A DNA stretch of 64,000 nucleotides. Source: Myxococcota bacterium. GTDB taxonomy: Bacteria; Myxococcota_A; Polyangia; Nannocystales; Nannocystaceae. The stretch covers positions 96,001-160,000 of the forward strand of contig JBCCHT010000009.1 in NCBI GenBank assembly GCA_039028615.1. Direction: 5' to 3'. Made by a program: the position numbers and the translations under genes. The notes beneath the pieces were generated by a model. It ran no database searches, was not told the DNA's origin, and worked only from the letters and a program-made list of their open reading frames with translations. Shown in pieces: positions 55,133 through 61,521 of this stretch (the stretch's first letter is position 1; each line of letters begins with the position of its first letter).

Positions 55133-55834
55133 ATGGCGGACTCGTCGGACATTCCGCGGCTCATCAGCGAGCTGTGCGATCAGTTCTATGGGCTGGGCTG
55201 GGTCTCGGGGACCGGCGGCGGCATCTCGATCCGTGGCGACGAAGGCATCTACATGGCGCCCTCCGGCGTCCAAAAAGAGCGCATCGCGCCCGACGACGTC
55301 TTCCTCCTGGATGGCTCAGAGCTGACGCAATGCCGGGTTGTCCGGCGTCCGGCCAGCAGCGCGCTACGGGTCAGCGAGTGTCAGCCGCTGTTCTACAACG
55401 CCTTCCGCATGCGGGGCGCGGGCGCGGTGATCCACAGCCACTCGATCTGGGCCATGCTCGCCACGCGCCTGTGCTCGCCGCAGGGCCGGGCCGGGGTGTT
55501 CGCGTGCGAGGGGCTCGAGATGCAGAAGGGACTGCGCGGCAAGGGCTGCTTCGAGCGCATCGAGGTCCCCATCATCGCCAATACCGCTCGCGAGTCCGAG
55601 CTCACCGAGTCGATGGCCGCGGCCATGGCAGCGCACCCGGATGTCGATGCGGTGCTCGTCGCGGGGCATGGTGTGTACGTGTGGGGCGAGACCTGGGTGA
55701 AGGCCAAGACCCAGGCGGAGTGCTACGACTACCTCTTCCGGGCCGTGGTCGAGGCGCACCGCCTCGGGATTCCACTGACCACCGCGAAGGCGACCGGGCC
55801 CACCTTGGCCCCGGCACAGGGAGCGAACCAATGA
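55133..55834 (+). CDS. mtnB: Methylthioribulose-1-phosphate dehydratase
   Basis: GWVSGTGGGIS, APSGVQKERI, AVIHSHS, HGVYVWG and ECYDYLF. Confidence 0.9.
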   Translation: MADSSDIPRLISELCDQFYGLGWVSGTGGGISIRGDEGIYMAPSGVQKERIAPDDVFLLDGSELTQCRVVRRPASSALRVSECQPLFYNAFRMRGAGAVIHSHSIWAMLATRLCSPQGRAGVFACEGLEMQKGLRGKGCFERIEVPIIANTARESELTESMAAAMAAHPDVDAVLVAGHGVYVWGETWVKAKTQAECYDYLFRAVVEAHRLGIPLTTAKATGPTLAPAQGANQ

Positions 55835-56298
55835 TTCTCGAGTGGCTCGACGACAACGCGGGGCAGGCTCCGTGTACGCCCGATGACCTCAATGCCGCCG
55901 GCGTGCTGCACGAGCGCCTCGAGGTCGACCCCGTCGCCTATCAGCCGCCGCTCGATCGCCTCAAGGCCGAGCGCGGGTACGTCGAGCAAGACATCATCGA
56001 GCTCCGCCCCGACACGCCCAAGCTCGACGACCTGTGCGCCAAGTTTGCCCCCGAGCACCTGCATACCGACGACGAGGTGCGCTACGTGCTCGAGGGCGAG
56101 GGCATCTTCGACATTCGTTCCACCGATGACCGGTGGATGCGAGTCACGGTGCAGCAGGGCGACCTGCTCGTCGTGCCCGCCAACATCCACCATCGCTTCT
56201 TCCTGACCGATCGCAAGCAGATTCGCTGCGTACGGTTGTTCAAGGACAGCTCGGGTTGGGTGCCGCACTACCGCGAGCACGCACCCGATCCGGCCTGA
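55831..56298 (+). CDS. mtnD: Acireductone dioxygenase
   Basis: F..EHLH.DDEVRY..EGEG.FD.R...D.W.R..GDL...PA.I.HRF. ATGA overlap with mtnB. Confidence 0.9.
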
Positions 56299-56342
56299 CC
56301 CACGCCTTCATCTGCGAAGGACCACACCGAGGAATTTCTTCC

Positions 56343-57668
<1,326 letters not shown>

Positions 57669-60144: not shown

Positions 60145-60620
60145 TCGGCCGTCGAGCGCTGCTCGCTGGCCTGGCCGGAGCGCTGGTGGCCCGAAGCGCC
60201 GGGGCGCATCCCTATCACGTGAGCACGGCCGAGGCCTGGGTCCGGGATGGCCGGCTCGAGGTCGCGCTGAAGGTCTCGCCCGAAGATCTCCAAGAGGCCC
60301 TGCGCCGAGCCGCGGGCAAGAAGGTCGACATCGACGGCGACATCTCGGCCCTCATCCGGGCCTACCTGCGGAAGCACTTCACCGTGCGCGGCCCGGACGG
60401 ACTCGTGCCGATGAAGTGGGTGGGCAGTGAGGTCGAGGTGGAGACCGCGTGGCTGTACTTCGAATACGAGACGCCCGGCTCGGCCAAGGGCTATGCGCTG
60501 TACAGCGGGGTGTTCTTCGACATCGCCCCCGCGCAGGTCAACCGGGTCCTGGTTCACCACGGTACGGCCTCGCGAACCCTTCGCTTTCGCCCTGGCGACC
60601 GACCCCGCCGCCTGGGCTAG
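60141..60620 (+). CDS. DUF6702-like exported protein
   Basis: RR signal ending AGA, then HPYHVS.AE, DL..AL, WVG.E.E and Q.N.V. ATGA overlap with the peptidase gene. Confidence 0.7.
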   Translation: MIGRRALLAGLAGALVARSAGAHPYHVSTAEAWVRDGRLEVALKVSPEDLQEALRRAAGKKVDIDGDISALIRAYLRKHFTVRGPDGLVPMKWVGSEVEVETAWLYFEYETPGSAKGYALYSGVFFDIAPAQVNRVLVHHGTASRTLRFRPGDRPRRLG

Positions 60621-60704: not shown

Positions 60705-60731
60705 TGTAAGAAACGAGGGGGGGCGTGCGTC
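60705..60731 (+). promoter_or_regulatory. Putative ECF-sigma promoter (TGTAAG-N17-CGTC)
   Basis: -35 TGTAAG at 60705-60710 and -10 CGTC at 60728-60731, upstream of the metallothionein-like ORF and the sigma gene. Confidence 0.5.
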
Positions 60732-60777
60732 AGCACGAGCACGAAGGGCCGGGATGGCCCAAAACCGAGGAAACCCC

Positions 60778-60927
60778 ATGGAAGACACCTGCAAATGCCC
60801 GTGCACGCAATGCGAGAGCCATTGCTCCTGCCCCTGTTCGCCTCCCCAAGACGGCGGCTGTTGCTGCGGCGCGACGTGCACCTGCGGCGACAACTGCCCG
60901 TGCGATGAGTCCTGCGGCTGTCCTTGA
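60778..60927 (+). CDS. Metallothionein-like protein (49 aa, 16 Cys)
   Basis: GAGG RBS 7 nt before the ATG. Sequence MEDTCKCPCTQCESHCSCPCSPPQDGGCCCGATCTCGDNCPCDESCGCP, with no aromatic residues and no signal peptide. Confidence 0.8.
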   Translation: MEDTCKCPCTQCESHCSCPCSPPQDGGCCCGATCTCGDNCPCDESCGCP

Positions 60928-60954
60928 TGCCGTGAAGTACACTGATCGTCGTTG

Positions 60955-61521
60955 ATGGCCGTTCAGGCGAAAGTCCCCTCGAGGGAGACCCTGATCGCGG
61001 ATGCTCTTCGTGAGCACGCCGCCCAGTTCCGTGCGTTCGTCGGCGCGCGCGTGCCTCCGGGCGAGGTCGAGGACATCCTGCAGACCGCGGCTTTTCGCGC
61101 CGTCGAGCGCTCCGGGTCCCTGAAGGACTCGGAGCGTCTCCTGCCGTGGCTGTACCGGCTGCATCGCAACATCATCGTCGACACCATGCGCCGACGAGCG
61201 AGCCGCGAGCGCGTGGTCGACCCCCATGCGGTGGCGCCCGAGCCCTCGGCCCAGCCCTCCGAAGACCCGTGTCACTGCGCCCTCGTGCTGGCCCGGCAGC
61301 TGAGCCCGGCCTACGCGTCGATGCTGTCGCTGGTGGACGCGGGAGATGCTTCGGTGGCGGAGGCCGCCGAGGCGCTGGGAATCTCCACCAACAATGCCGC
61401 CGTTCGTCTTCATCGTGCACGCAAGGCCTTGCGAAAAGCGATGCTCGAGCACTGCGGCGTACGCAGCCCGAGCGAGTGCGCCGACTGTCGCTGCGCATTC
61501 GAAGGTTGCTGCGCGATGTGA
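60955..61521 (+). CDS. ECF RNA polymerase sigma factor, CorE-like (metal-responsive, Cys-rich C-terminus)
   Basis: Sigma2 (EDILQ, WLYRL.RN..VD..RR), CHC linker motif, sigma4 (EAA..LGIS.NNA.VRLHRAR..LR) and C-terminal CGVRSPSECADCRCAFEGCC. Confidence 0.85.
   Translation: MAVQAKVPSRETLIADALREHAAQFRAFVGARVPPGEVEDILQTAAFRAVERSGSLKDSERLLPWLYRLHRNIIVDTMRRRASRERVVDPHAVAPEPSAQPSEDPCHCALVLARQLSPAYASMLSLVDAGDASVAEAAEALGISTNNAAVRLHRARKALRKAMLEHCGVRSPSECADCRCAFEGCCAM

Follow-up and report, generated by a model that had tools for sequence, protein, structure and literature searches.

The window analysed here is a 64,000-nucleotide stretch of the genome of a Myxococcota bacterium of the family Nannocystaceae (contig JBCCHT010000009.1, positions 96,001 to 160,000 of the forward strand); the genome measures 12.27 Mb, has a GC content of 68% and is 96.7% complete. 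The single sequencing run that contains the window bears the label marine metagenome and may be where it came from. Towards its 3' end, the window carries a candidate metallothionein gene followed by the gene of a CorE-like extracytoplasmic function (ECF) sigma factor, with a predicted promoter of the kind that this sigma factor probably reads lying in front of both (Table 1).

Table 1. Features of the peptide-sigma cassette, with positions in the window
Feature	Position	Strand	Remarks
Predicted -35 element TGTAAG, ECF44-type promoter	60705..60710	+	
Predicted -10 element CGTC, 17-nt spacer	60728..60731	+	transcription start expected at about 60737-60739
Shine-Dalgarno-like GAGGA of the peptide gene	60766..60772	+	just 5' of the ATG
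Candidate metallothionein gene	60778..60927	+	49 aa, 16 Cys; conserved family and coding selection
ECF sigma factor gene, former group ECF44 (CorE-like)	60955..61521	+	188 aa; domain matches, Cys positions, tree

The peptide gene and its family

A preliminary description of this DNA had proposed a 49-codon open reading frame (ORF) without a stand-alone call in the mechanical ORF list, with its own ribosome-binding site and with a product rich in Cys, containing one His and lacking aromatic residues and a signal peptide. These points were borne out. The list merges the peptide into a 166-aa frame beginning at the GTG at 60427; the frame is open from there and holds a second ATG at 60754, and homologues start at the equivalent of 60778, most of them behind a GGAG/AGGA-type site (as judged by eye). 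In the translation, Cys occupies positions 5, 7, 9, 12, 16, 18, 20, 28, 29, 30, 34, 36, 40, 42, 46 and 48, with a single His and no Phe, Trp or Tyr. The N-terminal block (CxC-x2-C-x3-CxC) comprises five Cys that are conserved in the family and seven Cys in the window peptide; it is followed by a Pro/Gly/Asp linker, variable in the family, and by a C-terminal nine-Cys block (CCCG-x2-CxC-x2/3-CxC-x3-CxC). No hydrophobic stretch or signal peptide was seen in the window peptide on inspection by eye, without a predictor. As an estimate of chance, 16 Cys were counted in only two of the 128,513 stop-terminal 48-residue segments of the genome. The window peptide is missing from a collection of 15 billion proteins in which the neighbouring sigma factor is present, indicating that gene callers overlooked the peptide gene.

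The preliminary description had also suggested a small-ORF search upstream of CorE-like sigma genes, and this search retrieved a conserved Cys-rich ORF together with the promoter motif described below. A profile scan of metagenomes yielded the best 80 of 280 confirmed sigma loci, and in 22 of the 23 closest of these an ORF with this Cys pattern is found directly 5' of the sigma gene, the remaining locus having only 17 nt of flank. Members of the family (31 loci) are 43-61 aa in length with 23-33% Cys; 29 of them possess no aromatic residue and the other two possess one each. Alignment of 24 members (seven near-duplicates were dropped) showed 14 conserved Cys columns, distributed over a five-Cys block and a nine-Cys block separated by the variable linker, with one Gly as the sole conserved position besides Cys. 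In this set, the proportion of synonymous differences (pS) exceeded that of non-synonymous differences (pN) in 275 of 276 pairs, identity at the first, second and third codon positions was 0.59, 0.63 and 0.42, and both TGC and TGT were found at every Cys column; the frame and the alignment were chosen at the protein level, which favours this result somewhat. The peptide gene is a genuine conserved small coding gene.

The peptide profile, 23 of whose 24 sequences come from the clade of the window's sigma factor, matched 19 proteins in a word-indexed library and 20 among 1.84 billion representatives; when 401 genomes from the class and 401 from the phylum were scanned, it matched 19 and 10 of them, respectively, with one copy in each genome. 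The family is patchy across genomes and is under-counted because gene callers miss it. Named homologues, all annotated as "hypothetical protein", carry the labels Labilithrix, Minicystis, Polyangiaceae, Nannocystaceae, Anaeromyxobacteraceae, Myxococcales and, in one case, Pseudomonadota. One 144-aa protein (P0143) has the peptide at its start and a sigma-like Cys tail at its end, and is probably a deletion or a frameshifted assembly of both genes.

The peptide has several features of the metallothionein class, being small, gene-encoded and Cys-rich, with CxC, CxxC and CC motifs and few or no aromatic residues. It was compared with the metallothionein models of Pfam, as the preliminary description had recommended, and none of the 24 members gave a significant match (the best E-value being 3.3, to Metallothio_5, PF02067, in two members); no member matched an NCBIfam model, and a sequence search of the PDB gave a best E-value of 0.38, not significant, to 5ML1, which we take to be the metallothionein of Littorina littorea. 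In a protein atlas, three unnamed clusters ranked first (0.88-0.91), with metallothionein clusters at 0.82-0.85, below the atlas's threshold for a lead. A metal-free AlphaFold model of the peptide was uninformative, being of low confidence (pLDDT 63, a score of the predicted local distance difference test), and Foldseek found no match for it in the PDB. The term eukaryote-like, which had been applied to the peptide, is therefore apt for its composition but not for its ancestry, as far as the eukaryotic metallothionein models and structures compared here can tell. Like the peptide family, animal metallothioneins contain about 30% Cys, are rich in CxC, hold almost no His or aromatic residues and are built of two Cys blocks with a linker, one of them of nine Cys; nine Cys also make up the beta domain of mammalian metallothionein. 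Convergence in composition would be the simpler reading of this likeness.

Functionally studied bacterial metallothioneins have been described as being of only two kinds, SmtA/BmtA and MymT (PMC7387436). The BmtA family, which includes SmtA and the PflQ2 metallothionein, resembles the peptide in consisting of small Cys-rich cytoplasmic bacterial proteins with a likely role in zinc buffering or storage and a tie to zinc-uptake genes; BmtA of marine Synechococcus WH8102, for example, is described as a Zur-activated zinc bank (PMC9337993). However, BmtA proteins contain about 16% Cys (PMC13578184), against the 23-33% of the peptide family. They also adopt a zinc-finger fold of the GATA type and have His among their ligands, while the peptide family has no conserved His or aromatic residue, and they are governed by SmtB or Zur, while the peptide is apparently governed by an ECF sigma factor. 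The BmtA/SmtA models of Pfam (presumably the one named Metallothio_Pro) and of NCBIfam were matched by none of the 24 members. MymT of Mycobacterium tuberculosis is likewise a small thiolate-rich chelator under the control of a metal sensor, but it is a copper metallothionein under the repressor RicR, and the peptide family is distinguished by its CCC motif, its 14 conserved Cys and the lack of a conserved His. No Pfam, NCBIfam or PDB match ties the peptide to MymT, a comparison made through these libraries, which possibly hold no MymT model, and through its description. Nor was any member of the CsoR family found among the neighbouring ORFs scanned (51 of 101 in one set and 15 of 30 in an earlier one). 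By sequence comparison, the peptide belongs neither to BmtA nor to any modelled eukaryotic family; it probably represents a family of bacterial metallothioneins that has not been described, its metal binding being suggested by composition.

In the literature searched, which leaves out most subscription papers and the soil-metagenome metallothioneins of Li et al. 2020, no account was found of a CorE-like sigma factor that has a metallothionein as its partner gene; within the same literature, the statement of the preliminary description that no such metallothionein had been described in myxobacteria stands. PMC3107203, PMC6851896 and PMC8999054 do not use the word metallothionein in their main texts, nor is it found in the four searched supplements of PMC4937300, and neither CCCG nor CTCG occurs in four supplements of PMC11705764.

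The sigma factor, its promoter and their linkage to the peptide

The gene of the sigma factor begins 27 nt after the stop codon of the peptide gene, at an ATG with an in-frame TTG directly before it (60952), and a clear Shine-Dalgarno sequence was not seen. The protein matches PF08281 and TIGR02937 above their cut-offs and PF04542 (sigma2) at 23.4 bits, just below the cut-off of 24 bits; the best NCBIfam model, SigZ, remains below its cut-off. As had been noted from the letters of the DNA, a CxC (C106/C108) lies in the linker between the two sigma domains and the tail carries six Cys (C167-x7-C175-x2-C178-x-C180-x4-C185-C186). The linker CxC is invariant in 60 aligned relatives and present in all of the 120 closest proteins, 118 of which also share the extra terminal CC. 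Nor is an anti-sigma gene found next door: the flanking genes encode an M1 peptidase, a DUF6702 protein and, downstream, an ORF without a Pfam family, none of them matching an anti-sigma family, and flanking genes differ between related sigma loci.

These features (sigma2 and sigma4 only, the linker CxC, the Cys tail and the lack of an anti-sigma factor) are shared with CorE and CorE2 of Myxococcus xanthus, formerly of group ECF44 and now placed in or beside ECF238 (PMC3107203, PMC4937300). When the tails are brought into register by the published Cys numbering of these two papers, and not by sequence alignment, C167, C175, C178 and C180 have the spacing of CorE residues 181, 189, 192 and 194 and include the equivalent of the essential CorE Cys189 and CorE2 Cys178. 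The position of CorE Cys184 is taken by Arg170 and that of CorE2 Cys174 by Ser171, and Cys is found at either position in none of the 120 closest proteins; no Cys occupies the CorE2 173 position either. In CorE, Cys184 is reported to be required for inactivation, a C184A variant being constitutive with no peak and no shut-off (PMC3107203), while Cys174 is reported as the Cd/Zn determinant of CorE2, C174A being constitutive and copper-responsive, and the published rule is that Cys at this position marks a Cd/Zn response (PMC4937300). In a quick IQ-TREE analysis of 120 rows with the tail removed, from which five loci without a scorable tail were left out, 47 sigma factors of the window's type formed one clade with a support of 98 (Shimodaira-Hasegawa-like approximate likelihood ratio test, SH-aLRT). 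By the features tested, the sigma factor is a member of ECF44 but is not an orthologue of CorE or CorE2: the label CorE-type given to it earlier holds for the architecture, the CxC and the Cys tail but not for the clade or for the Cys184 and Cys174 equivalents. As the clade is separate and lacks CorE Cys184 and CorE2 Cys173/174, the published metal-specificity rules are not directly transferable to it. It also differs from CorE and CorE2 in that its apparent target is a chelator peptide and not a set of exporters, and in that it apparently shares an operon with this target.

Of 401 genomes sampled from the phylum, 39 contain matches to the sigma factor at E<=1e-20, and 30 loci were taken from these; a scan of a genome collection with the single sigma sequence gave at least 71 mostly distant ECF sigma factors (27-50% identity), used only as an outgroup. 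One CorE-like sigma factor was found in the window's genome, and there was no plasmid match at an E-value of 1e-15. Close sigma proteins include some labelled as metagenome-assembled genomes of Actinomycetota and Pseudomonadota, and a sample of 401 genomes from the phylum to which genome G723 belongs yielded no member of the clade.

The motif TGTAAG-N17-CGTC is present upstream of the peptide gene, as the preliminary description had stated. In the general form TGTAA[G/T]-N16/17-CGTC, it lies at most 140 nt before the peptide start in 30 of the 31 loci found through the sigma factor (sigma-first loci), the exception beginning inside the -35 box. When upstream regions were shuffled, 16 of the 93,000 resulting sequences contained it. 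It precedes all 19 matches found through the peptide profile (peptide-first matches), and all 14 that remain when the window's own locus and four seed loci are set aside, one of these 14 peptides being identical to a seed. Spacer length and sigma clade vary together: the two boxes are 17 nt apart at 34 of 43 sites next to sigma genes of the window's clade, and 16 nt apart at 53 of 58 sites next to those of the CorE type. Beside sigma factors with a CorE tail, 25 of the 32 ORFs that follow the motif encode a P1B-ATPase, an HMA, YHS or HMBD protein or a multicopper oxidase; these 32 were picked by eye from 85 non-Cys ORFs, with sigma frames and frames that were evidently wrong excluded. The ATPases carry CPC in five of the five inspected and YN and MxxSS in all four complete ones, and CPC, YN and MxxSS together form the signature of Cu(I)-ATPases. 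The CorE regulon has been reported to include copA, copB, cuoB and a metallochaperone gene (PMC3107203, PMC6851896), and the motif agrees with a published hint at the promoter, in which AAC at -35 is followed by a G after 16-18 nt (PMC3107203); the 2021 reclassification reports no conserved promoter motif for ECF238 as a whole. Because the motif heads genes for Cu-ATPases, chaperones and oxidases beside CorE-type sigma factors, it is probably the ECF44 promoter and is very probably read by the window's sigma factor.

The window site scores 28.8 with a matrix built without it (training range 19.3-32.2), followed at 18.2 by the second-best site of the genome. No second site of the genome falls within the training range, and none above 13 lies within 3 kb of oxidase, MerC or HMA genes; the regulon predicted for this genome is this single operon. 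Neither a sigma70 promoter nor a T-tailed terminator was found at the window locus. A conserved 5' leader structure or riboswitch was considered and rejected, leader lengths and folds varying across 30 loci. A related pattern, TGTAA[G/T]-N16/17-CGTT, occurs at 22 genome sites (e.g. C4:224382 and C4:223696, minus strand) before many lipoprotein- or surface-like genes; two such sites lie at an ECF sigma gene and its downstream partner on contig C4, and they probably mark the regulon of another ECF sigma factor with the same -35 box.

A CorE-like sigma gene lies within about 1.5 kb of 16 of the 19 peptide-first matches (11 of 14 without the own and seed loci): directly downstream of the peptide in 14, divergent or upstream in two and absent over this distance in three. 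The promoter stays with the peptide even in the five of 19 cases where the sigma gene is divergent, upstream or absent, as expected of a target gene. Viewed from the sigma factor, the profile finds a peptide upstream at 29 of 34 window-type loci against 4 of 54 CorE-type loci (sigma-first, with at least 300 nt upstream), a contrast that is inflated because of the origin of 23 of the 24 profile sequences from window-type loci. In the inner clade of 32 sigma factors, 31 have the peptide, the exception again being the locus with 17 nt of flank. Another Cys-rich ORF, mostly shorter, was seen by eye beside the sigma gene in 19 of 66 CorE-type sigma-first loci. Within ECF44, sigma genes are thus repeatedly found paired with the gene of a Cys-rich peptide, and in the window's sigma clade this arrangement is nearly fixed.

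Further Cys-rich ORFs were noted at individual loci. Those directly before or after CorE-type sigma genes at L139, L141, L153, L158, L159, L161, L165, L167, L168, L170, L177, L099 and L107 are mostly of 24-57 aa with 6-11 Cys, usually behind the same promoter motif. At L089, a 106-aa ORF with 26 Cys in CxCxxCxCxxCxC repeats lies about 470-150 nt 5' of a CorE-type sigma gene and is a candidate for a longer, multi-domain metallothionein. At L155, the region upstream of a window-clade sigma gene that has no peptide holds a 72-aa Cys-rich ORF on the other strand, with a copy of the motif pointing at this ORF also; the ORF resembles the GDCCVxC family.

Genes for metal handling near the cassette

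Genes of the zinc type (MerC, CobW, Fur, ZIP, FolE and phytochelatin synthase) lie near 15 of 48 loci of the window's clade and near none of 68 CorE-type loci, whereas genes of the copper type lie near 2 of 48 and 40 of 68, respectively. With the seed and peptide-first loci left out, the counts are 5 of 34 against 0 of 54 for the zinc type and 2 of 34 against 28 of 54 for the copper type. MerC adjoins the peptide-sigma pair in seven of eleven 12-kb genome stretches. At one locus (L218:2600-10050), the peptide and its promoter occur without the sigma gene amid cobW, fur, folE, metal-independent carbonic anhydrase-like, AztD-like and TonB receptor genes, a set that we take to be a zinc-starvation cluster; the sigma factor of the same genome is encoded on another contig (L223), with its own copy of the motif. 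Phytochelatin synthase is encoded divergently from the peptide-sigma operon at L219:4455-6600, and downstream of the peptide, together with arsC- and arsM-like genes, at L221:1533-6417.

No P-type ATPase was detected in the 12.3-Mb genome that holds the window, either with PF00122 (14 of 14 controls being positive), by tblastn with three P1B queries or by a search for DKTGT, although assembly gaps may account for this. The genome has one cation diffusion facilitator and no CzcA-type pump above the cut-off, and P-type ATPases are present in all five tested genomes of the same genus. The peptide as a substitute for P-type ATPases was rejected as a rule, such an ATPase being kept in 17 of 18 other peptide-bearing genomes and in 17 of 20 peptide-negative relatives.

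Proposed circuit and competing explanations

Taken together, these data make it probable that the locus is a metallothionein cassette driven by its own sigma factor, with a preference for divalent metals or with the metal left unspecified. By analogy with CorE and CorE2, the sigma factor would become active when its linker CxC and its Cys-rich tail bind a thiophilic metal. It would then recognise TGTAAG-N17-CGTC, for which the comparative data argue strongly, and, to judge from the gene order, transcribe a two-gene message encoding first a cytoplasmic metallothionein and then the sigma factor itself, so that positive autoregulation would follow from the shared message. This would set the cassette apart from CorE2, which is reported not to be autoregulated (PMC4937300), and from ECF238, likewise described as not autoregulated; CorE is reported to be only partly autoregulated (PMC6851896). 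The peptide may bind about four to five divalent ions, or more monovalent ones, in thiolate clusters; from the Cys count, three divalent ions could plausibly be held by the nine-Cys C-terminal block and one or two by the N-terminal block. By lowering the concentration of free metal, the peptide would return the sigma factor to rest in a negative feedback, and an external off-switch of this kind is an attractive conjecture where the Cys184 equivalent has been lost. In yeast (Ace1-CUP1) and in animals (MTF-1 and metallothionein), comparable loops exist in which a metal-activated Cys-rich transcription factor induces a chelator that removes the signal; the sensor proposed here differs in being a subunit of RNA polymerase co-encoded with its chelator, and no homology is implied.

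Zn(II)/Cd(II) would be the likeliest inducer, at about even odds against all the rest, and the gene neighbours in relatives favour it over copper; Cu is a weaker candidate, and Hg/As or a mixture weaker again. If the inducer is Zn or Cd, the peptide might serve as a zinc store and overflow buffer. A more far-reaching proposal is made tentatively: that a new metallothionein family unrelated to BmtA and MymT co-evolved with an ECF44 clade lacking the Cys off-switch of CorE, the thionein draining the sigma tail, as a counterpart of the MTF-1/metallothionein loop in the zinc economy of myxobacteria and possibly of other marine bacteria. Within the literature searched, the candidate metallothionein family and the distinct ECF44 clade are new, while the CorE-like type of metal-sensing sigma factor is known. 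Should the proposed circuit be correct, it would add a new, so far unannotated bacterial metallothionein family and a new regulatory logic; the regulators named for bacterial metallothioneins in the literature compared are SmtB, Zur and RicR and include no sigma factor. The cassette also provides a candidate consensus promoter for ECF44 sigma factors and, in its sigma factor, a natural tail variant bearing on how the arrangement of Cys sets metal specificity and shut-off; with the whole circuit spanning about 820 bp, it is small enough to be studied in a laboratory host and could find use as a compact biosensor for metals.

Several observations weigh against a sigma-driven cassette that prefers divalent metals. 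The seeds of the peptide family were drawn from the same sigma loci with which the family is found to be linked. The window locus itself has no metal gene nearby. The clade has a single origin, so that the split between zinc-type and copper-type neighbours amounts to one evolutionary contrast and not to many. At L218, the Fur and AztD-like proteins do not reach the curated Zur and AztD cut-offs; MerC takes its name from the uptake of mercury, its status as a zinc gene resting here on its neighbours, and no link between MerC and zinc was found in the literature searched. Phytochelatin synthase was present at L219 and L221, the latter also with arsenic genes. Under the published rule, the absence of the CorE2-174 Cys from the window-type tail would suggest a response to copper, or else leaky activity. 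Lastly, TGTAAG combined with CGTT (22 of 35 loose genome sites) appears to serve another ECF sigma factor of the genome, which might also read the window promoter, cross-talk at the shared TGTAA[G/T] -35 box being possible.

The strongest alternative, although an unlikely one, is that the circuit is the same but specific for copper, the peptide being a Cu(I)-thionein under a CorE-like copper sensor and replacing the lost Cys184 off-switch. It draws on the missing Cd/Zn determinant, given the copper response of CorE2 C174A (PMC4937300), and on the constitutive behaviour of CorE C184A (PMC3107203), whose Cys is absent from all 120 closest sigma factors. The Cu(I)-type ATPases headed by the common promoter motif in sister clades, the lack of a detectable P-type ATPase in this genome and the short Cys-rich ORFs beside the sigma gene at 19 of 66 CorE-type loci are also consistent with it. 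The neighbours of the window's clade, being of the zinc type at many more loci than of the copper type, argue against copper, and the ATPases retained in 17 of 18 other peptide-bearing genomes show that the peptide is no general replacement for them.

It is improbable that the peptide acts as a regulatory partner of the sigma factor, anti-sigma-like or as a metal relay, and not as a bulk chelator. Its tight operon coupling, its single copy in each of the 19 genomes with a match and the want of an intrinsic inactivating Cys in the sigma clade would suit such a partner, and canonical anti-sigma genes are described as co-transcribed with their sigma gene (PMC3107203). However, apart from one Gly, the peptide offers no conserved surface other than Cys; it has its own promoter away from the sigma gene in three of 19 matches and is divergent from, or downstream of, the sigma gene in two more. 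It also occupies the slot filled by transporters and chaperones beside CorE-type sigma factors, and an upstream peptide is missing for 5 of the 34 clade sigma factors whose flank is long enough.

A thiol or redox buffer, or a trap for soft metalloids (As, Hg), under a thiol-sensing sigma factor appears more doubtful still: phytochelatin synthase at L219 and L221, the ArsC/ArsM-like genes at L221 and MerC as the commonest neighbour speak for it, but CobW, Fur, ZIP, FolE and AztD-like neighbours suit a zinc economy better, and no merA or merR family was found among the scanned neighbouring ORFs. A disulfide-rich peptide or a ribosomally synthesised and post-translationally modified peptide (RiPP), both classes being found among small Cys-rich peptides, or a non-coding artefact would be consistent with the lack of a matching metallothionein model but is very improbable, since the 24 aligned members lack a leader and a hydrophobic signal for export, the neighbouring ORFs scanned include no recurrent family of modifying enzymes, radical-SAM or other, and coding selection is clear.

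Elsewhere in the window, three ORFs on the plus strand at 55133-57668, followed by those of the M1 peptidase and the DUF6702 protein, are apparently unrelated to the cassette; from inspection by eye, we take them to encode a methionine-salvage dehydratase, an acireductone dioxygenase and an adenosylhomocysteinase.

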